NCBI GenBank assembly: GCA_964489495.1
Contig: CAZAZA010000003.1
Location: forward strand, 1,660-65,659
Reading direction: 5' to 3'
DNA length: 64,000 bases
Source: an uncultured Bacteroides sp.
Lineage (GTDB): Bacteria > Bacteroidota > Bacteroidia > Bacteroidales > Muribaculaceae
Position numbers and translations under genes: made by a program. This document shows, piece after piece, positions 27,010-59,330 of this stretch; position 1 is the first letter of the stretch, and the number at the start of each line of letters is the position of its first letter. The notes beneath the pieces were generated by a model that made no database searches, had not been told where the DNA came from, and was given only the letters and a program-made list of their open reading frames with translations.

Positions 27010-28467
27010 CTACTGTTTCAGACATTCCATCACCACCTCGCGGTCGTCGAAATGGTGCTTGACACCGGCTATTTCCTGATAGTCTTCGTGGCCTTTGCCT
27101 GCGACAAGCACCACGTCGCCCCGTGAGGCCAGTGCTATGGCTGTGCGTATCGCCTCGCGGCGGTCGGTTATGAAGAGGGTGGTTGCAGCCTGCTCAGGTG
27201 TCAGGCCTGCTTTCATGTCCTCGATAATGGCCTGCGGGTCTTCGTCGCGGGGATTGTCGGATGTGAGTATAAGCCGGTCGCTGCGCATGGCCGCGTCACG
27301 GGCCATTATGGGGCGTTTACCGTGGTCGCGGTTGCCTCCCGCGCCTACAACGGTTATGATATGCCCTTCCGACCCCATCACTTCGCGTATGGCCGTGAGC
27401 ACGTTGACTACGGCATCGGGTGTGTGGGCGTAGTCGACCACGGCGGTCACGCCGCGCTCGGGCGAGCGGAAGGTCTGGAAGCGTCCGGCCACCGGTACCA
27501 GGCGGCTCATATCTACAAGTATTTCCGCCGGATCCCATCCGAGCAGGCACGATACCCCGTAGACGGCGGTGAGGTTGTAGGCATTGTAACGGCCTGTGAA
27601 CATCACTTCCACTTCCTGTCCGTTGAGTTGGAGAAGTGTGCCGTCGAGACGGCTTTCCACCACTTTGCAGCGGAAGTCCGCGTAGTCGCGCAGGGAGTAG
27701 TAGAACCGACGGGCGTGGGTGTTCTGCAGCATTACCTCGCCCACCTTGTCATCACGGTTGCTGAGGGCAAAGGCGCTTTCGGGCAGATTGTCGAAAAATG
27801 ATTTCTTGGCCTGGAGGTAGGCTTCGACCGTGCGGTGGTAGTCGAGGTGGTCGCGGGTGAGGTTGGTGAACACTCCGCCGGTGAAATGCAGTCCGGCTAT
27901 GCGGTGCTGGTGAGCGGCATGCGAGCTTACCTCCATGGCGGCATACGAGCAGCCTGCTGCCACCATACGTGCAAGCAGGGCGTTGATGGTCAGCGGGTCG
28001 GGTGTTGTCTGGGTTGTGGGCACCGCCTCGTTGTCGATATAGTTGCAAACGGTCGACAGCAGACCTGCCTTGTAGCCGCGCAGACGAGCCATCTCATAGA
28101 TGAGGGTGGCCGTGGTGGTCTTGCCGTTGGTGCCTGTCACGCCCACGAGCTTGAGTTTGCGCGACGGGTTGTCCCACCACTGTGAGGCAAGGAATCCGAG
28201 GGCTACGGCTGAGTTTTCCACTTTAATATATGTAACCGTTGAATCGAGGCGTTCGGGAAGTTCCTCGCACACTATGGCTGCGGCTCCCGCAAGTGTCACA
28301 AGCGGTATGAACTTGTGGGCGTCGACCGAGACTCCGCGCACAGCCACGAAGAGCGCGCCCGGCGTTATACGCCTTGAGTCGCATTCCACGGCTGTGATGT
28401 CGCGTTCGCGTTCGCCGATTATCTCTTTGACCTGGATGGCCGCGAGTAGGTGGGTTAGTTTTTTCAT
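27010..28467 (-). CDS. murE: UDP-N-acetylmuramoyl-L-alanyl-D-glutamate--2,6-diaminopimelate ligase
   Basis: 485 aa. VTGTNGKTTTATLI and DNPR motif (LTSDNPRDEDP). Position in the dcw cluster. Confidence 0.94.
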   Translation of the reverse strand: MKKLTHLLAAIQVKEIIGERERDITAVECDSRRITPGALFVAVRGVSVDAHKFIPLVTLAGAAAIVCEELPERLDSTVTYIKVENSAVALGFLASQWWDNPSRKLKLVGVTGTNGKTTTATLIYEMARLRGYKAGLLSTVCNYIDNEAVPTTQTTPDPLTINALLARMVAAGCSYAAMEVSSHAAHQHRIAGLHFTGGVFTNLTRDHLDYHRTVEAYLQAKKSFFDNLPESAFALSNRDDKVGEVMLQNTHARRFYYSLRDYADFRCKVVESRLDGTLLQLNGQEVEVMFTGRYNAYNLTAVYGVSCLLGWDPAEILVDMSRLVPVAGRFQTFRSPERGVTAVVDYAHTPDAVVNVLTAIREVMGSEGHIITVVGAGGNRDHGKRPIMARDAAMRSDRLILTSDNPRDEDPQAIIEDMKAGLTPEQAATTLFITDRREAIRTAIALASRGDVVLVAGKGHEDYQEIAGVKHHFDDREVVMECLKQ

Positions 28468-28505: not shown

Positions 28506-30602
28506 TCAATGTGAGAGATGCAGAGTTACTGACGTGCCGGCTCTGGCGTGGGTGCCCGGCGCGGGGGATTGCGTGCTGACATATCCCGAACCGGAGAAGT
28601 CGATGTTGTATCCGGCACTTTCAAGCAGGTCTATTGCCTCGCGTATGTCGAGTCCCGAGACATCGGGAACACCCGACTGCGTGGCCTGTGGCTGGCGGAT
28701 GTGGCGTGGGGCAACCGTCACACCGAGTTGTTCGCGCAGCCGGTTGTTGCGTCCCTCGCGGGTCGAGGCATAGAATACGGGCGACTGGGGCAGGCTGAGG
28801 GCGTGCTCGTCGTGTGCGCGGTAGTCGGGCGTGTTGTCGAGGAGTCCGCGTGCGTCGAAGCTTTCAGCAATGTTTTTGAACACCTGGCCGCTTGTCGACG
28901 GCGCTCCGAACGCATTCTGTGTGGGATGGCTGACAATCACTATGCACGAATACTTAGGCTTGTCGTACGGGAAGAATCCGCAGAATGCCAGACGTTTGTT
29001 GTCGCTATATCCTTGTTTTGGCACGTAAATGCGGGCTGTGCCCGTCTTGCCGGCTATTTTCACACGGCTGTTGCGCAGCGATTTGGCAGTGCCTCCCTTG
29101 GTGTACACCACGTCATGAAGCATCTTGCGCAGTATGGCCGCGTTGGCCGGCGAGCATACCGACTCCCGCACGCATGTCACGGGGAAAACCGTATCGCCCA
29201 ACTCGCCGTGGAGCTCCCGCACGAGGCGTGGCTTTACAAAACGTCCGTCGTTGGCAACGGCGTTATACAGGGCGAGTGTGTAGATAGGCGGTATGGCCGT
29301 GCCGTAGCCGTAAGCCTGGCTGGCAAGCATCAGCCTCTTCTCATGCAGTTTGCCGCGCATCGGATACATGACGGCGCATCCTTCGCGTTCAAATCCTATG
29401 TTGAACCGGTCGAGGAATCCCGTGCGGCGTACCGCTGTCTGGAAAGCGTCGGGATCGTCGCCGTATCCGTCGAATATAATGCGGCTGATGCCGATGTTTG
29501 ATGACTCGGGAATTACCTGCGACACGCGCTTGGTCGCGCTCTTGTGGCTGTCCTGCACGGTGAACCCCTTGCCGAGCGACGCGGTCTGCACGATGGCCGA
29601 CGTGTCGCGCACCACACCGTTTTCAAGAGCCACAAGCATCGACAGCAACTTTACCACCGAGCCCGGTTCGTAGGGTAGCACGGCGTGGTTCTGCGACTGG
29701 ACTATGTGTCCCAGCGTGTCGATCTCGATATTCGTTATGGCCTTTATGTCGCCGGTGGCCACTTCCATCACCACGCACGAGGCCCATTCGGGACGGCAGT
29801 GTTCCACCATTCTTGTGAGCTGGTGTTCGACTATATCCTGCATGGCTATGTCGATGGTTGTTGTCACGTCGTAGCCGCGTTTGGGAGGTACGTTCACCCA
29901 GTTGGTTATGCCCCGGTTCAGAGCTTCGCGGCGTGCGTAGCCGGGGCGTCCGTAGAGCAGCGAGTCGAGGGTGCGTTCCAGTCCGCTGCGGCCTATGCGG
30001 CGGCGGTCTTTGTCTGTTTGTCCGACGGTGCCTATGCTCTTGCGGGCCATGTCGCCGTAAGGCTTGAAACGGATGAGGCGTTCTTCGAGTTTCCATCCGG
30101 TCTTGTCGGAGTTGTGAATCTTGAAGAAGGGCCATTCGCGTATGCGCTGCGACTGGTAGTACGTGATATTTGTGAGTATCGGGTAGTTGCGGCGGTAGAC
30201 GCTCGACGGGCCTTTAATCAGGTGTTTGCGCCACTGTGCGCGGGTGCGGTGCGGGAAATACGTGGCCAGCGAGTCGCTCAGGCTGTCGATGGCGAGCATG
30301 TAGCGTTCGCGTGCGAACCGCTGCACCTCGTAGTCGATGCGTAGGTTGTATTTGAGCATGTTGGTGGCTATGATTGTGCCGTCGCATGCCAGCAGGTCGC
30401 CTCGGTCGGGCGCTATGGTGTCGACCACGGCCATCATCGAGTCGGCTCTGTGGTTCCAGTGCTGGGCCATTACCACTGTATTGTCGACGAGTTTCCATGA
30501 TATGCCTCCCGCGAGCGCGAGAATGCACGCGATAATAACGGCGTAGCGCAGCAGAATCTCTTTGCGGCCGCCTGATTTTTTGTCTCTTCTGTTTCCGGCC
30601 AT
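28506..30602 (-). CDS. ftsI: Class B penicillin-binding protein (divisome transpeptidase FtsI/PBP3) with C-terminal PASTA domain
   Basis: 698 aa. N-terminal TM helix. Transpeptidase motifs (..PGSVVKLLSM.. SxxK, ..KIAGKTGTA.. KTG). C-terminal VPDVSGLDIREAIDLLESAGYNIDFSGSGYVSTQSPAPG is PASTA-like. The ATG lies 2 nt after the upstream stop (TGAccATG). Confidence 0.92.
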   Translation of the reverse strand: MAGNRRDKKSGGRKEILLRYAVIIACILALAGGISWKLVDNTVVMAQHWNHRADSMMAVVDTIAPDRGDLLACDGTIIATNMLKYNLRIDYEVQRFARERYMLAIDSLSDSLATYFPHRTRAQWRKHLIKGPSSVYRRNYPILTNITYYQSQRIREWPFFKIHNSDKTGWKLEERLIRFKPYGDMARKSIGTVGQTDKDRRRIGRSGLERTLDSLLYGRPGYARREALNRGITNWVNVPPKRGYDVTTTIDIAMQDIVEHQLTRMVEHCRPEWASCVVMEVATGDIKAITNIEIDTLGHIVQSQNHAVLPYEPGSVVKLLSMLVALENGVVRDTSAIVQTASLGKGFTVQDSHKSATKRVSQVIPESSNIGISRIIFDGYGDDPDAFQTAVRRTGFLDRFNIGFEREGCAVMYPMRGKLHEKRLMLASQAYGYGTAIPPIYTLALYNAVANDGRFVKPRLVRELHGELGDTVFPVTCVRESVCSPANAAILRKMLHDVVYTKGGTAKSLRNSRVKIAGKTGTARIYVPKQGYSDNKRLAFCGFFPYDKPKYSCIVIVSHPTQNAFGAPSTSGQVFKNIAESFDARGLLDNTPDYRAHDEHALSLPQSPVFYASTREGRNNRLREQLGVTVAPRHIRQPQATQSGVPDVSGLDIREAIDLLESAGYNIDFSGSGYVSTQSPAPGTHARAGTSVTLHLSH

Positions 30603-31564
30603 GGTCAGTCGTTTTCTTTTGTGACATGATATGGCGGACGCTCGCGCACGCTCAGTCCGAGGTGCAGCGTGTCGATACGCCTGGACATCGACGATTCACG
30701 GGTGTTGCTCATATAGTTTTCGCGCTCGTTTGCTTTTTCGGCCTCGATGATCTCGAGTTGCTTTTCGAGTCGCCGCGTGGTGAGTTTCTGGTCTCGCACC
30801 ATATATCTGCTCGATATGTAGGCTTCGAGTTTCCATCCGGTCTTGTCGGAGTTGTGAATCTTGAAGAAGGGCCATTCGCGTATGCGCTGCGACTGGTAGT
30901 ACGTGATATTTGTGAGTATCGGGTAGTTGCGGCGGTAGACGCTCGACGGGCCTTTAATCAGGTGTTTGCGCCACTGTGCGCGGGTGCGGTGCGGGAAATA
31001 CGTGGCCAGCGAGTCGCTCAGGCTGTCGATGGCGAGCATGTAGCGTTCGCGTGCGAACCGCTGCACCTCGTAGTCGATGCGTAGGTTGTATTTGAGCATG
31101 TTGGTGGCTATGATTGTGCCGTCGCATGCCAGCAGGTCGCCTCGGTCGGGCGCTATGGTGTCGACCACGGCCATCATCGAGTCGGCTCTGTGGTTCCAGT
31201 GCTGGGCCATTACCACTGTATTGTCGACGAGTTTCCATGATATGCCTCCCGCGAGCGCGAGAATGCACGCGATAATAACGGCGTAGCGCAGCAGAATCTC
31301 TTTGCGGCCGCCTGATTTTTTGTCTCTTCTGTTTCCGGCCATGGTCAGTCGTTTTCTTTTGTGACATGATATGGCGGACGCTCGCGCACGCTCAGTCCGA
31401 GGTGCAGCGTGTCGATACGCCTGGACATCGACGATTCACGGGTGTTGCTCATATAGTTTTCGCGCTCGTTTGCTTTTTCGGCCTCGATGATCTCGAGTTG
31501 CTTTTCGAGTCGCCGCGTGGTGAGTTTCTGGTCTCGCACCATATATCTGCTCGATATGTAGGCT
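30083..31564. repeat. Perfect tandem duplication, 2 x 740 bp (copy 1 30083-30822, copy 2 30823-31562, 2-bp CT junction microhomology)
   Basis: The sequence from cttcgagtttccatccgg.. onward repeats with a period of exactly 740. Three pairs of ORFs in different frames are identical in the track (30214..30627 = 30954..31367; 30337..30546 = 31077..31286; first 172 aa of 28506..30602 = first 172 aa of 30605..31342). Confidence 0.95.
30605..31342 (-). CDS. Duplication-junction chimeric ORF: FtsI residues 1-172 fused in frame to FtsL residues 50-122
   Basis: 245 aa. The N-terminal 172 aa are identical to ftsI (MAGNRRDKK...DKTGWKLE). The C-terminal 73 aa are identical to the end of ftsL (AYISSRYMVRDQKL...HVTKEND). 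It has the same TGAccATG coupling to upstream ftsL, and its stop has the same coupling to downstream ftsI. Confidence 0.85.
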   Translation of the reverse strand: MAGNRRDKKSGGRKEILLRYAVIIACILALAGGISWKLVDNTVVMAQHWNHRADSMMAVVDTIAPDRGDLLACDGTIIATNMLKYNLRIDYEVQRFARERYMLAIDSLSDSLATYFPHRTRAQWRKHLIKGPSSVYRRNYPILTNITYYQSQRIREWPFFKIHNSDKTGWKLEAYISSRYMVRDQKLTTRRLEKQLEIIEAEKANERENYMSNTRESSMSRRIDTLHLGLSVRERPPYHVTKEND

Positions 31565-31713
31565 ATGGCCATGAACATCAGGCAGGTCACTATCAGCCAG
31601 TGACGCAGGAAGAAATCGACGTTGAACCACCGTCCGTAGGCTGCGTCGGAGAGTATCGTGAGCGGCGATCGGCGTTTCGGTGTGTCTGTTTGTCTGTTAT
31701 TGCGGTCTTGCAT
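31345..31713 (-). CDS. ftsL: FtsL-like small bitopic division protein
   Basis: 122 aa. Single TM helix (WLIVTCLMFMAIAYI) followed by a coiled-coil-like segment (LEKQLEIIEAEKANEREN). Conserved position between rsmH and ftsI. Confidence 0.7.
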   Translation of the reverse strand: MQDRNNRQTDTPKRRSPLTILSDAAYGRWFNVDFFLRHWLIVTCLMFMAIAYISSRYMVRDQKLTTRRLEKQLEIIEAEKANERENYMSNTRESSMSRRIDTLHLGLSVRERPPYHVTKEND

Positions 31714-31738: not shown

Positions 31739-32653
31739 TTAAATTTTTTCGGCAGCCCTGAGCTTGGCGCTGCGGCTTCGCGGGTTGCGCTCTACTTCGC
31801 TTGCCGAGGGGGTGACCGGTTTTCCTGTCAGCGTACACCACGGTGAGTCGCTGCGCCCGTAAAGGTCTTTTTCGATAGTGCCGTGGATGTTGCCCGAGCG
31901 CATGAGGTTTTTCACCATACGGTCTTCGAGCGACTGGTAGGTGATCACAGCCAGGCGTCCTCCTGTCCGCAACGCGCCGGCGCACTGTCCGAGGAAGTCG
32001 CTGAGCGCTCCCATTTCGTCGTTGACCTCGATGCGCAGAGCCTGAAACAGAGGGGCGAGTTCTTTTTTCTCGCGTCCACGGCTCAGCAACGGGCCTACGG
32101 CTGCAGTGAGGTCGGCGATGGTGGCGAACCGGTGTGTGTCGCGGGCTTTCACTATTGCTGCGGCGATTCGCGGGGCGGCTTTCAGTTCACCATACAGCCT
32201 GAATATTTCGGTCAGCTTGGTGAGGTCGGCCGTGTTCAGCAGGTCGGCGGCTGTTAGAGTCATTCCACGGTTCATGCGCATGTCGAGAGCTCCTTCGGGC
32301 GAGCGGAACGAGAAGCCTCGGTCGCCGTCGTCGAAGTGGTGGAACGATACCCCGAGGTCTGCAAGTATGCCGTCGACTTTGCCCTCGATGTCGTAAAAAC
32401 GAAGGAAGTCGCTCATATACCGGAAATTGGCGTGTATGGGCGTGATGTGTGGGTGCGGTTCGAAGCGCTTTATGGCATCGCTGTCCTGATCGAACGCAAA
32501 AAGCATTCCGCCGTCACCGAGACGGTCGGCTATGGCGCGTGAATGGCCTCCGCCGCCCAAAGTGGCGTCGACATATATGCCGTCGGGCTTCACGTCAAGA
32601 AGCCCGAGTGTCTCGGGCAGCAAGGCCGGTATGTGATAAACTTCCTGATTCAT
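31739..32653 (-). CDS. rsmH: 16S rRNA (cytosine1402-N4)-methyltransferase
   Basis: 304 aa. YHIPALLPETL..DGIYVDATLGGGGHS.. and ..LADLGVSFHHFD.. motifs. First gene of the dcw cluster here. Confidence 0.95.
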   Translation of the reverse strand: MNQEVYHIPALLPETLGLLDVKPDGIYVDATLGGGGHSRAIADRLGDGGMLFAFDQDSDAIKRFEPHPHITPIHANFRYMSDFLRFYDIEGKVDGILADLGVSFHHFDDGDRGFSFRSPEGALDMRMNRGMTLTAADLLNTADLTKLTEIFRLYGELKAAPRIAAAIVKARDTHRFATIADLTAAVGPLLSRGREKKELAPLFQALRIEVNDEMGALSDFLGQCAGALRTGGRLAVITYQSLEDRMVKNLMRSGNIHGTIEKDLYGRSDSPWCTLTGKPVTPSASEVERNPRSRSAKLRAAEKI

Positions 32654-32845
32654 TGGTAGTTGCGGTCAGGGGCATATGCCTCTGATTTGAGGGGATAAAA
32701 TTAGTCATTTTTGCTGAAAATTTACATATCCAAACAGCACTTTTTTGAACAGGTTCGCCAAAAAAATGCACTCGCCCAACCAATAATCCTGTAATCAGTA
32801 AGTTACCGTTCTAATTTGCAATTGCAAATCAATCGGGGCTGCATA

Positions 32846-34666
32846 TTACTCGATCCTCACCGACGGAGAGATTTGTCCGAAGTCATTGTCGAGTATGTCG
32901 ACATTGCGCGTGCGCAGCAGACGGAAGTTGAATGTGTTGGAATGGAATGCCGGATAGTCGTGGTTAAAAACTATTTTGTTTCCCGAAAAGCGCAGTCCGT
33001 CAACCGATTTGGCAAACAGGAGGGGTGCGTCGAATGTCACGAATTCGTTGTCTTCGATCACTATGCCCGAATGAAAATATTTCTGTTGGGCGGCGAGATT
33101 GTGTATCTCGGGATAGATCGATATGACGGCTTCCGTAAACTGGAACATGTTGGTCAGTGAGTTGACGAAGCGGTTGTGGCGTATTGTCACGTCGCGGCAC
33201 GCCCCGGTCTCAAACCATCCCATGCAGTCGCCGCACAGCAGCACGGCTGTGCCCGATGTGTGGTCGAAGAGATTGCGCTCCACCACGGTGCGTCGCGGCG
33301 TGCTGAACAGCGACCCGCGAGCCCTGTTGTTGCGTATGACGTTGTCGGCAAAGTAGACTTCCGGACTCCAGGTCAGGTTTTCAAATCCGTAAGCCCCGGT
33401 TTCAGTGATGCCGGCGGGTAGCGGAGCAGTGAAGGTGATTTCAAATTCTTTGCATCCGGCCGTTGTAGGAGTGTCGGACGGAATGATTGATTCTATCACA
33501 TACACGCCGTCGATTGTTTCCATTGTCTCTGAGGATATTATCTGTACGGAGTCGCCCGGTTCGCCCCATTTGAATCCATAGCTCTGACCGTGCATATATC
33601 GGGCGCGGACGGTGCGTTCTGATTGTCTGGCTGTCAGTTTCAGGTATGTGCCGTGTACGTTTATGGCATCATCCATCATTCCCTCGTACAGTCCGCCTGT
33701 CGAGCGTATCAGTCCACGGCATCCCGAGAAGTGGGTGGCGTCGGCCTGGGTGGTGAAATATCTCGGGTCGTCAGTCCCTCGGAGTGCCACCTTGAACCCT
33801 TCGAGATTCACGCTGTCGCATAATTGGGCGAGCAGACCCATTCCTTCGGCATAATGTACGGTCACATCGCGCAGAGTGGTGGAGACGCATTCGTCGAGAA
33901 ACACGCCGGGAGCGGGTCTGCCCCATGTGCGTAATGCCACTACTGTTCCCGGTTTCAGCCTGTCGTCATGCCATTTGGGAGCGAAAAATGCAGATTTACC
34001 TCTGGCTATGACACTGTCGACCGGGCACCATAGGTCGCTTGTCCGATAGACAAGGCGACGGGTGTCGTGTTCAAACGCTATCCCGTTCATCGGAGTCATC
34101 TGCCATCCTTCGCCTTTCGACACAAAAGCTCCTTTTCCGTTAACCTCCGCTTTGACCCAGGGAGCTGTCCTGAAGGTGATTCCGTCGGCATTGTTGTCGA
34201 CTATCTCCACTTGGGTGATATGCGGAGTGGCGAAGTCGATGCTGAATCCCGAGAGTGTGCATCCCCGCGATCCTGTCACCGCTACCGGAAGCATGCGTCC
34301 GTGAAACATGAATTCCGCACCTTCGCCGGCAATCGTCACGCTGTCCCAGTTCTCAATCGCAATTCCCACGTTTTTAGGGTTTTCCTGATCGTGGTTCGAA
34401 ATATAGTAAGTGCGGCTTATGCTTCCTTTGGGATAGAAGTCATATCGTCCCGGGGCGAATTTCAATGTGACGGCATGTCCCGCATGGCGTGATTTTATGT
34501 CGGCGAGAGCCCGGGCCACACGGTCGGAAACATTTTTCCCACGGTCAGGTTTGATGCCGTATTCTGCGGCCATGTCGACCACAGTCTGTGCTGATGCCCC
34601 GAGTGATCCGCAGCAGCATGCCGCCGCGATGGCCAGGGCGAATAACTTTCTCATGTCAGATTTCAT
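32846..34666 (-). CDS. Secreted right-handed beta-helix glycoside hydrolase, GH110-like alpha-1,3-galactosidase (probable)
   Basis: 606 aa. Signal peptide. The N-terminal pattern ..GRYDFYP...YYISNHDQENPKNVGI.. and repeated beta-helix segments are recalled from GH110 enzymes. Not verified by search. Confidence 0.6.
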   Translation of the reverse strand: MKSDMRKLFALAIAAACCCGSLGASAQTVVDMAAEYGIKPDRGKNVSDRVARALADIKSRHAGHAVTLKFAPGRYDFYPKGSISRTYYISNHDQENPKNVGIAIENWDSVTIAGEGAEFMFHGRMLPVAVTGSRGCTLSGFSIDFATPHITQVEIVDNNADGITFRTAPWVKAEVNGKGAFVSKGEGWQMTPMNGIAFEHDTRRLVYRTSDLWCPVDSVIARGKSAFFAPKWHDDRLKPGTVVALRTWGRPAPGVFLDECVSTTLRDVTVHYAEGMGLLAQLCDSVNLEGFKVALRGTDDPRYFTTQADATHFSGCRGLIRSTGGLYEGMMDDAINVHGTYLKLTARQSERTVRARYMHGQSYGFKWGEPGDSVQIISSETMETIDGVYVIESIIPSDTPTTAGCKEFEITFTAPLPAGITETGAYGFENLTWSPEVYFADNVIRNNRARGSLFSTPRRTVVERNLFDHTSGTAVLLCGDCMGWFETGACRDVTIRHNRFVNSLTNMFQFTEAVISIYPEIHNLAAQQKYFHSGIVIEDNEFVTFDAPLLFAKSVDGLRFSGNKIVFNHDYPAFHSNTFNFRLLRTRNVDILDNDFGQISPSVRIE

Positions 34667-54949: not shown

Positions 54950-56569
54950 TTAGGAGTTGCTCTCGTCGTTTGCCGGTTTGTCGGGGCGTGTCTTCACCTT
55001 GCCTCGGCGTTCGCGCATGAACACTTCGCCCGACGGGGGGAGTGTGGGAGCCGAGGGCGTCCCGATGCGTTCGAGCAGGCGGGGATTGCGGCGCGGTTTG
55101 TCGGCGCGTGTGCGGTCGTTGTCACGGTCGTCCCACCGGTCACGGCCACCGTTGTCGTGGCGGTCACGCGAGTCCTTGCCTTTGAAATCGCGGTTTCTGA
55201 AATCTTTTCCCTTGAAGTCGCGGCGCGGTTTGTCGTGACGCAGGCGTTCGTCCGAATGGTCGTCCCAGTGACCGCGTCCCTTGCCTTTGGGACGGTCGCT
55301 GCGTCGTTCCTGTCGACGGTCGTGCTTGCACCGGATATTTGTTTCGCTGTCGTCATCTTCGTCGTCGCGGGTGCGCCGCAGCGTGCCTCCGGAGGCACGG
55401 AACTGCTTGTAGTCGCCTTCGAATATCACGTATTCGCGGAGCTGGCATTCCAGGTTGGCGTTGTAGAGGGTTTCTTTGTATGACGGGGCGAGGCCGATTT
55501 TGTCGAAATATTCCTCGCGGTAGCCGATTATCCATGCATGGTAGCCACGGAACACGTTCTTGAGCCGGTTGCCTATGAGCTCGTAGAATTTGTCCATGTC
55601 ATCCACGCTGATGCGTTCGCCGTAGGGCGGGTTGGTGACGATCACGCCGGGAGTGCCTCCCTCGGGGGCCTCTTCCCAGCGGGCTATCGGTCGCACCTGC
55701 AGGTCGACATAGCGTGCCATTCCCGCGCTTTTGAGGTTGCGGGTGGCAATGTCGATGGCCAGTGGAGATATGTCGGCTCCGTAGATTTTGCCTTCGAACG
55801 GGCGTTCGGAGCTTTCGTCGTTGTAGATTTCGTCGAACAGCTCGGCATCGAAGTCGGGCCATTTCTCAAACGCGAAGCTCTGGCGGAACACGCCGGGCAT
55901 CGTGCCTGTGGCGATAAGGGCGGCTTCGACAAGGAATGTGCCCGAGCCGCACATGGGGTCGACCAGGGGCTGGTCGCCGCGCCAGCCGCTTTTCAGCAGT
56001 ATGCCTGCGGCAAGCACTTCGTTGATCGGGGCCTCGGTCTGTGCCACGCGCCAGCCGCGTTTGTGCAGCGACTCGCCCGACGAGTCGAGCGACAGCGTCA
56101 CCTGGTTGCCCGATATGTGTACGTTGATTATCACGTCGGCATCCTGCAGGCGCACTTTGGGACGGCGACCCAGGCCTTCGCGGTCCTGGAACCAGTCCAC
56201 AATGCCGTCTTTGACACGGTATGTGACGTAGCGTGAGTGGGTGAAGTCTTCGGAATTGACCACCGAGTCGATCGCAAACGAGCTGTCGAGGTCGAGGTGC
56301 CGGCTCCAGTCATATTCCTTCACTCGGTCGTATAATGTGTCGGGGTCGGAGGCGTAGAACTTGTAAATGGGTTTAAGTATCCTTAACGCGGTGCGGCAGC
56401 ACATGTTAGCCCTGTAAAGGGTCTCGAGGGTGCCGTCGAACGACACCATTCGGCGTCCGGGTTCCACGTTCAGGGCTCCGATGCCGCGTAGTTCTTCGGC
56501 CAGGACGTCTTCGAGTCCTTGAAAGGTCTTTGCGACCATTTCAAACGTTTGAGGGTTCGTCTCCATCAT
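54950..56569 (-). CDS. THUMP-domain class I SAM-dependent RNA methyltransferase (RlmK/L-like) with a 142-aa Arg/Asp/Lys-rich C-terminal tail
   Basis: The ORF opens with TTG at 56590. ATG ATG at 56569/56566 is more likely. Motifs: ..MCGSGTFLVEA.., ..YGADISP.., ..IVTNPPYGERI... The tail starts at ..RRTRDDEDDD... Confidence 0.8.
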   Translation of the reverse strand: MMETNPQTFEMVAKTFQGLEDVLAEELRGIGALNVEPGRRMVSFDGTLETLYRANMCCRTALRILKPIYKFYASDPDTLYDRVKEYDWSRHLDLDSSFAIDSVVNSEDFTHSRYVTYRVKDGIVDWFQDREGLGRRPKVRLQDADVIINVHISGNQVTLSLDSSGESLHKRGWRVAQTEAPINEVLAAGILLKSGWRGDQPLVDPMCGSGTFLVEAALIATGTMPGVFRQSFAFEKWPDFDAELFDEIYNDESSERPFEGKIYGADISPLAIDIATRNLKSAGMARYVDLQVRPIARWEEAPEGGTPGVIVTNPPYGERISVDDMDKFYELIGNRLKNVFRGYHAWIIGYREEYFDKIGLAPSYKETLYNANLECQLREYVIFEGDYKQFRASGGTLRRTRDDEDDDSETNIRCKHDRRQERRSDRPKGKGRGHWDDHSDERLRHDKPRRDFKGKDFRNRDFKGKDSRDRHDNGGRDRWDDRDNDRTRADKPRRNPRLLERIGTPSAPTLPPSGEVFMRERRGKVKTRPDKPANDESNS

Positions 56570-56661
56570 GTGAAAAAAGCTTTGGTGCAAAATTACTCAC
56601 AAATCTCCAAACACAAAAAATCTCAGCCAATAATCTTTTTGAAGTTTCATCCGTTATTGTC

Positions 56662-56755
56662 CCCCACCACATTTTTTGTAGGGGCGTACGGTCGTGCGCC
56701 CGGCCCGAGCGGCATGCCGCAACCGGGGTGAATATGGTGTTAAATAATTGGGAAT
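56662..56755 (+). repeat. 94-nt repeat, left copy (contains a REP-like GTAG-hairpin at 56678-56701)
   Basis: 88 of 94 positions are identical to 58104-58197 in the same orientation. The first 40 nt are identical. Confidence 0.9.
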
Positions 56756-56759
56756 AATC

Positions 56760-57704
56760 TTATTTGCGCATCAACATTTCTGCAAATTCTTGGGCTTCAC
56801 GTTCTTTCTCAGGATCTTTGTTGCCGTAATTGACATTTTCAATGAAGATGTCTTTTTTACCATGAAGTAGGATGTGGCCTATCTCATGGTATAGCGTATT
56901 CCAGAATGCCGATTCGTCATCAAATACTTTGGCAAGTTGAATACATGGAATACCGGATATGTATCTGGCACAACCCTTGACAGGTGCCGTTGAAAGCGTT
57001 TCTGTGAAAATGAGCTTTACTCCGGCATCACCTAACATTGATTCCAATAGTTCAATGTGATTGTCAGCCTTGGATTTTCTAATTTCGGAAATCTCAGTTA
57101 GAATGCTACGAAGCAGCTTTGCATTATGCCGTTTCGCTATATGTATTTTTCCTGCTTGGATTTCGCCTTGACGTAGCCAGGCGGAAAGAGCATACGGGTC
57201 ACAGGCATTGGCAAGGGTTATGCTGAATGCTACACGAAGCCGTTGGTTGAGATAGAAGTCTTCCCAACCCTTAGGTGAACTGACAGCAAAGAATGTGCAA
57301 AGAATGTCGACAATGTTTTTTGTCTCTCCTTGTGTGTCGTTTATTCCAGCAAACCATCCGAGATTTGCTATTTCGTCGTATGGAAATTTTTTAGCCCAAA
57401 TTAGGCCTTCCTTGAACGTTTTTTCTCTCTTTTTGCGAGCTATAAATTCATCATAACTTTTCTGATGGCGAAGCCACATATGGGCCGGTATCTTCGTTAC
57501 TAATTCAAACGCGACAGCCATGTCCGGTGTTATGGAACTTTTGCCTTTTAAGACTGCAATAATTGTTTTTTCGGGTTTAGAAACCCGTGTGGCAAATTCT
57601 TTCACCCCCATTCCCATCTCTAAAAGTTTCTCTTCAAGAGTTTCGCCTGGATGATATATTACCGGTAACTTTGCCGGATTTAAAAATGGTCTTGTCTGTG
57701 CCAT
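56760..57704 (-). CDS. higA: HigA-like antitoxin: XRE-type HTH fused to an ImmA/IrrE (COG2856) zinc-metallopeptidase domain
   Basis: The ORF extends to 57749. The ATG at 57704 is 4 nt after the higB stop. HTH region GMGVKEFATRVSKPEKTIIAVLKGKSSITPDMAVAF. HExxH motif LYHEIGHILLH near the C-terminus. Confidence 0.7.
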   Translation of the reverse strand: MAQTRPFLNPAKLPVIYHPGETLEEKLLEMGMGVKEFATRVSKPEKTIIAVLKGKSSITPDMAVAFELVTKIPAHMWLRHQKSYDEFIARKKREKTFKEGLIWAKKFPYDEIANLGWFAGINDTQGETKNIVDILCTFFAVSSPKGWEDFYLNQRLRVAFSITLANACDPYALSAWLRQGEIQAGKIHIAKRHNAKLLRSILTEISEIRKSKADNHIELLESMLGDAGVKLIFTETLSTAPVKGCARYISGIPCIQLAKVFDDESAFWNTLYHEIGHILLHGKKDIFIENVNYGNKDPEKEREAQEFAEMLMRK

Positions 57705-57708
57705 ATCT

Positions 57709-57960
57709 TTATTTGCCGTGATAGTTTGTAATTTCAATGACTTCGACACCTTTAATTTCCAACCAGATATATCTACCGGAGGAATCGGTTGGAATTGGGT
57801 CTTCGTGTGGTTCGAATATCAAGCGGTAAGGATGGTCAAGATCACAAGCAGATAATCTTTTGAGAAATAGTTTAGTTCTCAGTGCGCCAAGTTCTCTTGT
57901 CAATTTGGAAGGATTGTCCAGTAATTTTTCGAGTTTTTTATTTTGGAACGAAATATTCAC
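57709..57960 (-). CDS. higB: HigB/killer-protein-family toxin, short form (possibly internally deleted)
   Basis: 83 aa with a GTG start. MNISFQNKKLEKL... and ...DLDHPYRLIFEP....IEITNYHGK match the two ends of HigB-like toxins. The middle segment seems to be missing. Confidence 0.6.
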   Translation of the reverse strand: MNISFQNKKLEKLLDNPSKLTRELGALRTKLFLKRLSACDLDHPYRLIFEPHEDPIPTDSSGRYIWLEIKGVEVIEITNYHGK

Positions 57961-58046: not shown

Positions 58047-58103
58047 GTTTATGAATGCAATATGTGCGACATGGCAGGATATAGGAAATCATTTATCCGT
58101 GTT

Positions 58104-58197
58104 CCCCACCACATTTTTTGTAGGGGCGTACGGTCGTGCGCCCTGTCCGAGCGGCATGCCACGACCGGGGTGAATATGGTGGTAAATGATTGGGAAT
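58104..58197 (+). repeat. 94-nt repeat, right copy (contains a REP-like GTAG-hairpin at 58120-58143)
   Basis: See the left copy at 56662-56755. Confidence 0.9.
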
Positions 58198-58212
58198 TAC
58201 TTTATTTGCTCC

Positions 58213-58358: not shown

Positions 58359-59330
58359 TCAGATATAGCTCAGCCTTCTTCCGCTTGCTTCCCACTCCTT
58401 CCAGTAGGTGTTGTCAAGCCTCTGTAGATAAGGGAATTGATCGTACCATACGCCCGGTTCGTTACCACCAAAGAAATAATATCCGTTCTGTTCAAACTTT
58501 TCCGGCGATTCGAACTTGGCTGCCGATGCTGCAAGGAATTCATTTTTCGTCACTTCTACGTAACCCGCGTCCGACTTCACGTAGTAAGTGTTATCATAGA
58601 GGACGCTCCAGTGTGGTGCCACGGCGGCAAGCACCGTGAACTGAACCACATCATCATATTGGGTATTGGTCTCCTTGTCGTAGAGGAACGAGGCGCTTAT
58701 CGCCATGAGGTTCTCGCCATACTCCTTGAACGCATTTTCATACACGCCCGGAAGATTGGTGCGGATCCAGCTGTTATTCTCTTCTGACAAATAACTCTGA
58801 GGTTCATTCTTGCGATAGCGGACAAAGTCTGTTTCAAAGCCTTCGGCGCACCAGTCGGCTGTAGCATCCTCCTTGTATCTCGGGATGTAGACGTAAGGAT
58901 AGGAGAGTATCTTTTGTATCTCCGCCGGATCTGTGATGCTGTTCCCATTTTCGTCGATACAAATTTGATCGAGATACACCACACTGTTGAACGGATACAG
59001 CTGCTCATCTCCACGTGGGTCGTATGCCGCTTGATTCAATTCGTAATAGAACACCGACATGCTGAAATATCGTTCGGTGGCGTTGGTGTGTAATCTGACA
59101 GTACGAACCGGATAACGGACATGGTTGGATGAAAACCATATCTGTGCTACATATGAGATTTTGTCTTTATCCGGACCCATGTAACCTATTTCGAGTTCAA
59201 ACAGCCGATGGGAGAGCCATTCGTCGCTTATTGATGCAGACGGTTCATCCTCCTGCGAAGAGCAAGACCCTGAGGCCATGGCAAGCAGGGCAAATAGACC
59301 AATCGCTACTATGTGAATAAAAAGTTTCAT
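58359..59330 (-). CDS. Hypothetical lipoprotein
   Basis: 323 aa. Lipoprotein signal MKLFIHIVAIGLFALLAMASGSC. No recognisable motif. Starts 24 nt downstream of the preceding lipoprotein gene. Confidence 0.6.
   Translation of the reverse strand: MKLFIHIVAIGLFALLAMASGSCSSQEDEPSASISDEWLSHRLFELEIGYMGPDKDKISYVAQIWFSSNHVRYPVRTVRLHTNATERYFSMSVFYYELNQAAYDPRGDEQLYPFNSVVYLDQICIDENGNSITDPAEIQKILSYPYVYIPRYKEDATADWCAEGFETDFVRYRKNEPQSYLSEENNSWIRTNLPGVYENAFKEYGENLMAISASFLYDKETNTQYDDVVQFTVLAAVAPHWSVLYDNTYYVKSDAGYVEVTKNEFLAASAAKFESPEKFEQNGYYFFGGNEPGVWYDQFPYLQRLDNTYWKEWEASGRRLSYI

Follow-up and report, generated by a model that had tools for sequence, protein, structure and literature searches.

The dcw cluster of an uncultured Bacteroides sp. 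(Muribaculaceae) carries, as assembled, a perfect head-to-tail duplication of 740 nt that begins within ftsL and ends within ftsI, and whose junction creates an additional in-frame ORF for a 245-aa FtsI::FtsL fusion protein between the intact ftsL and ftsI genes. We consider it somewhat more probable than all else that this is a very recent, strain-private, illegitimate tandem duplication and that the chimera is incidental to it. The analysis covered a window of 64,000 nt (the whole stretch of DNA that was analyzed), taken from contig CAZAZA010000003.1 of assembly GCA_964489495.1. The feature is a fresh instance of an already known type of event, the duplication join-point fusion, and is known here from the assembly alone.

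In the dcw cluster, the minus strand of the window encodes, in order, rsmH (31739..32653, the first dcw gene here), ftsL (31345..31713), the chimeric ORF (30605..31342), ftsI (28506..30602) and, downstream of ftsI, murE (27010..28467). The intact ftsL encodes 122 aa of the FtsL_2 family and the intact ftsI 698 aa with PBP_dimer, Transpeptidase and PASTA domains; the ORFs of rsmH and murE correspond to genes with Pfam Methyltransf_5 and Mur_ligase domains, respectively, in conspecific loci. Comparison of the window with itself at an offset of 740 revealed a single perfect run in which positions 30083-30824 are 100% identical to 30823-31564 (742 nt, 0 mismatches), far above the chance expectation. 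The repeat unit is thus 740 nt long and repeated head to tail, with a junction microhomology of 2 nt (AG on the minus strand). The copy that is first in the direction of transcription (copy A, 30823..31564, minus strand) contains ftsL codons 51-122, the stop codon, CC and ftsI-type codons 1-173. Copy B (30083..30824, minus strand) contains the FtsL-derived tail of the chimera, its stop codon, CC and codons 1-173 of the real ftsI. The endpoints of the duplication accordingly lie at ftsL codon 50/51 and ftsI codon 173/174. At the junction (30823..30824, minus strand), the site of the microhomology AG and of the newly formed codon GCC for Ala174 of the chimera, the sequence reads ...GGAAACTCGAAG followed directly by CCTACATATCG, its native counterparts being ...CTCGAAGAACGC in ftsI and ...GCCATAGCCTAC in ftsL; the junction-spanning sequence of the duplication is GGATGGAAACTCGAAGCCTACATATCGAGC. 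The 740-nt unit contains 0 complete genes, and a dosage benefit was rejected for this reason. No promoter-like or terminator-like sites above background counts were found in the 740-nt unit, and an internal promoter or terminator is therefore not supported. The window has 0 Ns, and the 740-nt repeat is the sole long exact repeat within its 64 kb.

The chimeric ORF joins residues 1-173 of FtsI, ending in DKTGWKLE, to a final stretch of 72 residues (AYISSRYMV...KEND) that corresponds to FtsL 51-122. A preliminary description, made from the sequence, had proposed an in-frame fusion of 245 aa at a duplication junction; the 742/742-nt repeat and the comparison with the parental genes bear this out, with the borders, given there as FtsI 1-172 and FtsL 50-122, each moved by one residue. 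At its 5′ end the ORF consists of downstream-gene sequence and at its 3′ end of upstream-gene sequence, the intact parents flank it, and the two direct copies are adjacent, as expected of a join-point ORF. Since both endpoints lie inside adjacent genes on the same strand, such a duplication leaves one intact ftsL, one intact ftsI and exactly one junction ORF. At both ends of the chimera the sequence is TGA-CC-ATG: the ftsL stop TGA and CC stand immediately 5′ of the chimera ATG (31343..31347, minus strand), and the chimera stop TGA and CC immediately 5′ of the real ftsI ATG (30603..30607, minus strand). Moreover, the 40 nt 5′ of the chimera ATG are identical to the 40 nt 5′ of the real ftsI ATG. 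The native-like position of the ORF, 2 nt after the ftsL stop and 2 nt before the ftsI ATG, had thus been described correctly, and its translation along with the operon, also claimed there, is a fair expectation at an ftsI-like rate if the DNA is real, given the identical start context. The coupling context, which the same description called "kept", is indeed present at both ends; as a sign of selection the claim did not hold, because the repeat unit includes the native ftsL-stop/ftsI-start junction and the context follows automatically from duplication of this boundary. The in-frame junction has a prior of 1/3, and the two properties, frame and coupling context, are not independent surprises. 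With a junction in either of the two alternative frames, translation would end 93-105 nt before the ftsI ATG. Among related species, ftsL and ftsI most often overlap or are at most 2 nt apart (about 39 of the 66 loci in which the ATG could be assigned, start assignment being rough), and the remaining loci (about 40%) have ftsL-ftsI spacers of 14-72 nt.

According to hydropathy, the only membrane segment of the fusion protein is that of FtsI (at about residues 12-41), and just about four residues of the FtsL membrane segment (around 32-54) are retained, in agreement with the earlier statement that the FtsI helix is kept and the FtsL helix incomplete. The topology is consistent, as both fused parts are periplasmic in the parent proteins. 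In Pfam comparisons, the FtsL part matched FtsL_2 (PF19579) over profile positions 31-97 of 100 with 25.7 bits, above the cut-off of 24.6. By its profile, the chimera thus matches the FtsL family, but it does not have the bitopic FtsL architecture (FtsL 1-50 are absent). All conserved periplasmic motifs of FtsL_2, namely YISxRY, YMSxTRESSM, DTLHLGL and ERPPY, are kept. The match to PBP_dimer covered profile positions 2-92 of 180 and, with 24.3 bits, fell just below the cut-off of 24.4, i.e., the pedestal is incomplete; for the Transpeptidase domain (SxxK, SxN, KTG), which occupies residues 275-579 of the parent FtsI, there was no Pfam match in the chimera.

On P. aeruginosa PBP3, the FtsI breakpoint maps by alignment to residue 148/149, directly before RxYPxG. 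In the P. aeruginosa FtsWIQBL structure, helix alpha-1 of FtsL touches the FtsI anchor at I58, R193 and Q208-215, as well as H61 and, in the head, L64, P72-P78 and F151-P156 (PMC7614612). Judged from the aligned residues, the chimera would still have the first strand and the head, but not F151-P156, R193 or 208-215. The region missing from its FtsI half also covers the K211 site, to which an FtsW-activating FtsI mutation of E. coli maps (PMC8078798). An AlphaFold2 model of the chimera had a mean pLDDT of 75 and a pTM of 0.48 and was computed from an imperfect alignment, in which MAFFT had placed FtsI sequence beyond residue 173 on the FtsL part and FtsL N-termini on FtsI columns. It contains a confident membrane helix and FtsI head fold, one long FtsL helix, a weak junction and a disordered C-terminus. 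In Foldseek searches, the folded core of the model gave modest matches to N-terminal regions of class B PBPs, among them 8bh1 chain B (E of about 1e-4, 115-125 columns). The model thus suggests only that the FtsI head is foldable and the FtsL part helical, and is silent on contact between the two halves.

For comparison within the species, we used 20 conspecific contigs of differing sample origin, one of them a 94-kb ENA contig. By its FtsI relatives, the window belongs among Muribaculaceae-like Bacteroidales; the FtsI of the best-matching GTDB species representative is just 78% identical and that of most others 39-46%. Many metagenome contigs carry the exact FtsL or an FtsI with 90% identity or more (37 contigs for the exact FtsL protein). 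The 20 conspecific contigs share 98.4-99.7% identity with the window. None of them has a chimera: in each, a spacer of 2 nt separates ftsL (122 aa) from ftsI (698 aa, truncated at the contig end in three contigs), and the 742-nt unit occurs once per contig, with 2-12 mismatches to the window (20/20). The window and the 94-kb contig are collinear over 22 kb with 99.3-99.4% identity and differ in structure only by the 740-nt duplication. Beyond this region, the dcw cluster of the conspecific contigs continues with mraY, murD, ftsW, murG, murC, an unnamed 277-aa gene and ftsA; the unnamed gene between murC and ftsA had no Pfam match. As the two copies differ at 0 positions and the window differs from every conspecific contig at 2-12 nt of the unit, the event is either younger than any split among the sampled strains or non-biological. 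The same picture emerged across the family. In 78 of 80 related species only ftsL lies between rsmH and ftsI, and no tandem duplication of this kind was found elsewhere in the family by self-comparison of 90 loci. The longer rsmH-ftsI gaps in two loci (L038 and L058) were considered as extra ORFs and rejected, since they represent N-terminal extensions of FtsI or FtsL. The chimera, present in 0 of the 20 conspecific contigs and 0 of the 80 family loci, is therefore not a conserved gene.

Searches for the junction itself gave a corresponding result. A 30-mer and a 22-mer spanning it were absent from the GTDB species genomes and the JGI metagenome contigs; the 16-mers flanking the junction are conserved in most conspecific contigs, which makes these probes adequate. 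Among about 15 billion proteins, the fusion protein occurred once, on one NCBI contig (82,532 bp), and its 90% cluster has one member from one contig, vs 197 contigs for FtsL and about 103 for FtsI. A homolog search with the chimera returned the chimera alone, although FtsI and FtsL clusters exist in the collection. Because this search missed known clusters, the statement that there is no second chimera rests on an index-free HMMER scan of 1.84 billion representatives, which yielded 461 relatives. None of the representatives other than the chimera itself matched both halves; for each of the other relatives listed, the match was confined to one part, reaching to about query residue 208 on the FtsI side or covering 172-245 on the FtsL side. 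A Logan short-read assembly containing the junction should break at the repeat borders and give partial products. Such contig-break products (an FtsL tail of 72 or 73 aa or an FtsI tail of 534 aa) were not on record in the collection, a search of low power, as the source sample is possibly outside it; the gene-position index likewise has no entry for the exact FtsI of the window.

Join-point fusion genes from spontaneous tandem duplications are reportedly a classical subject of Salmonella and E. coli genetics, associated with Anderson and Roth. The arrangement in the window resembles such fusions in its head-to-tail direct repeat, its unique junction with short or no homology, the intact parent copies, and a junction ORF whose 5′ portion comes from the promoter-distal gene and whose 3′ portion comes from the promoter-proximal one. 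It differs from the classical cases in that the unit is tiny (740 nt), includes no whole gene, exerts no dosage effect and lies in the essential dcw operon.

On the protein side, the closest counterpart is an engineered one. The E. coli construct malF1-37-ftsL58-121, which combines the cytoplasmic and transmembrane part of MalF with periplasmic FtsL, had no dominant-negative effect and was not incorporated into FtsQLB, whereas FtsL lacking the cytoplasmic tail (residues 1-30) was strongly dominant negative (PMC7733951). Like the MalF construct, the chimera presents the FtsL coiled coil and C-terminus on a foreign N-in anchor, without the FtsL tail and membrane helix. In contrast to it, the anchor consists of the FtsI helix plus about 130 residues of the FtsI pedestal, the FtsL helix begins well away from the membrane and may be brought to FtsW, and the host belongs to the Bacteroidota, with their divergent FtsL_2 family.

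A natural parallel exists within the Muribaculaceae, in which an extra ftsI-derived ORF likewise lies between ftsL and ftsI of the dcw operon. In Candidatus Avimuribaculum pullicola (locus L090), an ORF of 387 aa starts 1-2 nt after the ftsL stop; in it, a lipoprotein-like leader precedes a diverged copy (77% at the nucleotide level) of the transpeptidase part of FtsI, with SVMN in place of the catalytic SxxK. Logan and ENA sources contribute 66 member sequences to the 90% cluster of this ORF, and their origin from many samples indicates that the duplicate is established in this species. A sister species (L087) has only a 112-aa remnant with the same lipoprotein-like leader. Unlike the chimera in the window, the L090 duplicate carries the transpeptidase part rather than the N-terminus, has a new leader and is not fused to FtsL. 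Together, the two loci show that partial ftsI duplicates can settle in the dcw operon, and at least the one in L090 is decaying. An established duplicate thus shows divergence and occurrence in many samples; the chimera in the window shows neither.

If the DNA is real, an illegitimate duplication with 2 nt of homology and endpoints inside ftsL and ftsI would by itself create the junction ORF, which would inherit the start context of ftsI and the stop context of ftsL without any selection. The chimera would then be translated at about the rate of ftsI, as expected from the identical initiation region. The protein would insert N-in via the FtsI membrane helix and display half a pedestal (the head subdomain) followed by the periplasmic FtsL helix. 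It would be incapable of transpeptidation and would lack the FtsL membrane helix, which E. coli FtsL needed to join FtsB/FtsQ. Such a protein could take up a share of FtsW while contributing neither transpeptidase activity nor a complete activating pedestal; at most, a weak competition with FtsI for FtsW would be expected, making it neutral or mildly harmful, and displacement of FtsL by its FtsL half appears unlikely. The in-frame junction may be due to chance (1/3) or to a viability filter, as ribosomes would terminate 2 nt upstream of the essential ftsI: should initiation at ftsI require adjacent termination, only in-frame events would be harmless. Recombination between the 740-nt copies would be predicted to delete the duplication again. 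Two copies of this length are substrates for RecA-dependent recombination, which should remove one of them.

Several points count against a recent incidental duplication. An unselected duplication that reaches the consensus of a clone or population is a rare event, an in-frame and topology-correct fusion of partners from the same complex is at least compatible with function, and older partial ftsI duplicates have persisted in the same slot in the lineage of L090 and L087. The explanation that competes most directly, and that we regard as possible though doubtful, is that the organism has an ordinary ftsL-ftsI pair and no chimeric gene, the 740-nt repeat having arisen from an assembly or post-assembly error, e.g., from abutted overlapping contigs, gap closing, polishing, a chimeric read or a misresolved loop. 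Exact identity of the two copies, the restriction of the junction to this one assembly among all assemblies and metagenomes searched, its absence from 20/20 conspecific contigs, the duplication as sole structural difference from the 94-kb contig and a unit without obvious selective benefit are all in line with an artefact, and false tandem duplications in draft assemblies likewise show identical copies, one assembly and an arbitrary junction. Unlike those, the 64-kb window has no gap marks (Ns), contig end or second such repeat: the repeat lies away from contig ends within the window, and its being the single long exact repeat argues against a general tendency of this assembly to duplicate. 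De Bruijn assemblers, moreover, tend to collapse or break at tandem repeats rather than invent them, and can write only junctions with k-mers in the reads, which would also speak against an error if such an assembler was used. The junction homology of 2 nt equals the expectation for random joining. In a Salmonella survey, the spontaneous duplications that were confirmed by experiment had junction homologies of 11 bp or more, and short-homology junctions like the present one were indistinguishable from chimeric reads (PMC3411829). On the other hand, tandem duplications with 0-3 bp of junction microhomology are known from read data, having been called from isolate and population reads of P. fluorescens (preprint 10.64898/2026.05.22.727201).

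Two further explanations take the duplication as real and assign it an effect. The preliminary description had suggested a dominant modulator, positive or negative, of septal wall synthesis. As a selected function, this would require that the FtsI helix docks on FtsW while the FtsL periplasmic domain or the FtsI head tunes or blocks FtsWI activation or, alternatively, that the chimera titrates FtsB/FtsQ. The in-frame fusion with correct topology and one membrane segment, the retention of all conserved periplasmic FtsL_2 motifs, the ftsI-identical start context, which predicts about 1:1 synthesis with FtsI, and the confident FtsI helix, head fold and long FtsL helix of the AlphaFold2 model would suit such a role, as would the finding that the membrane helix of class B PBPs is a complex-forming contact with the SEDS partner (PMC8078798) and that, given activation mutations, a foreign anchor did not prevent periplasmic FtsL of E. 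coli from acting on FtsWI (PMC7733951). We nevertheless consider it quite improbable. There is zero conservation (one contig, zero substitutions between the copies, 20/20 conspecific contigs without the chimera and no second example), the MalF-anchored periplasmic FtsL was neither dominant negative nor recruited in E. coli (PMC7733951), and the pedestal anchor and RxYPxG residues, which include P. aeruginosa FtsL contacts and the activating K211 site of E. coli, are missing. Furthermore, the junction region and the FtsL C-terminus were modeled at low confidence, and decay is seen in the other partial ftsI duplicate known from this slot (SxxK to SVMN, and 112 aa in the sister species). A chimera that has evolved as a regulator is therefore unsupported, whether the duplication is real or an artefact. 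A duplication that is retained, or merely tolerated, for an effect on ftsI expression rather than through its protein appears highly improbable. Here the 738-nt translated spacer would alter the number of ribosomes reaching ftsI by termination-reinitiation, or mRNA stability. The stop-CC-ATG arrangement at both boundaries, the frequency of overlapping or nearly abutting ftsL/ftsI in the family, the fact that the in-frame junction alone brings terminating ribosomes beside the ftsI ATG, and a unit with no promoter-like or terminator-like sites above background would agree with this. The spacers of 14-72 nt in about 40% of the related species, however, leave coupling only putative, and the duplication is not conserved.

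If the repeat is an artefact, it serves as a warning that perfect tandem repeats in draft genomes yield plausible fusion proteins that enter databases; the chimera is already contained in the 15-billion-protein collection as an NCBI-sourced protein. In the improbable event that the chimera acts as a natural tethered modulator, synthesized in a ratio of about 1:1 to FtsI, it would be the first natural FtsI::FtsL fusion and a spontaneous counterpart of the MalF-FtsL constructs. If the recent incidental duplication is real, it offers a snapshot of the birth of a gene fusion within an essential operon of tightly packed genes. The operon would then tolerate internal duplications that start and end within genes, because both parent genes survive, and the chimera would provide a ready-made construct for probing the parts of FtsI and FtsL in the little-studied divisomes of Bacteroidota.

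The space between ftsL and ftsI that holds the chimeric ORF in the window is also occupied in Candidatus Avimuribaculum pullicola, where contig DVKC01000018.1 carries an extra ORF of 387 aa on the plus strand (L090:4774-5937). This ORF contains the FtsI transpeptidase part in a diverged copy (77% nucleotide identity), preceded by a new, lipoprotein-like N terminus (..VIGVLSQSCGAS..). Among its motifs, SxxK has become SVMN, while SSN and KTG are retained. The ORF is an old, partial duplication of ftsI, and it is fixed in Candidatus Avimuribaculum pullicola, judging by the 66 member sequences of its 90% cluster. A Muribaculaceae MAG (CALUMJ010000006.1) encodes a 112-aa ORF between ftsL and ftsI, likewise on the plus strand (L087:5860-6198). 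It shares the lipoprotein-like leader of the 387-aa ORF, and what it retains of the FtsI transpeptidase part is limited to the C-terminal ~60 residues (FCGFFPYGNPRYSCIVVCE..). The 112-aa ORF appears to be what is left of that old ftsI duplicate after shrinkage.

Additional repeats were observed elsewhere in the window. Two copies of a 110-nt direct repeat (56658–56767 and 58100–58209; 91% identity, 1442 nt apart) lie near the ends of two minus-strand ORFs of ~325 aa (56760–57749 and 58359–59330), which may be paralogous neighboring genes. Three G+C-rich direct repeats of 48 nt, 60–75% identical and spaced by 120–132 nt, were located at 54968–55267, within a 546-aa minus-strand ORF (54950–56590), and suggest an internally repetitive segment in its predicted product.

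Upstream in the dcw cluster, no mraZ was found before rsmH, neither in the window (32654–34666, minus strand) nor in the conspecific loci (L001–L010 and L091–L100). The same-strand upstream neighbor of rsmH encodes a 606-aa beta-helix protein (Pfam Beta-barrel_GLAA-B_I/II, matched in the conspecific contigs), followed by a PRK-family kinase. In this species, rsmH seems to be the first gene of the cluster.

The FtsI of the window (28506–30602, minus strand) ends with a PASTA domain (residues 645–697; Pfam, 47 bits), in a lineage that is Gram-negative. Searches recovered this domain in many FtsI homologs of Bacteroidota, whereas the structural references, PBP3 of E. coli and P. aeruginosa, lack it. 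At the opposite end, one related species encodes a 766-aa FtsI with an N-terminal extension of ~60 residues (L038:5884-8184), and in another the 154-aa FtsL is lengthened at its N terminus by a long, charged stretch (L058:1449-1913). Within the family, the divisome proteins FtsI and FtsL differ in the length of their cytoplasmic tails.
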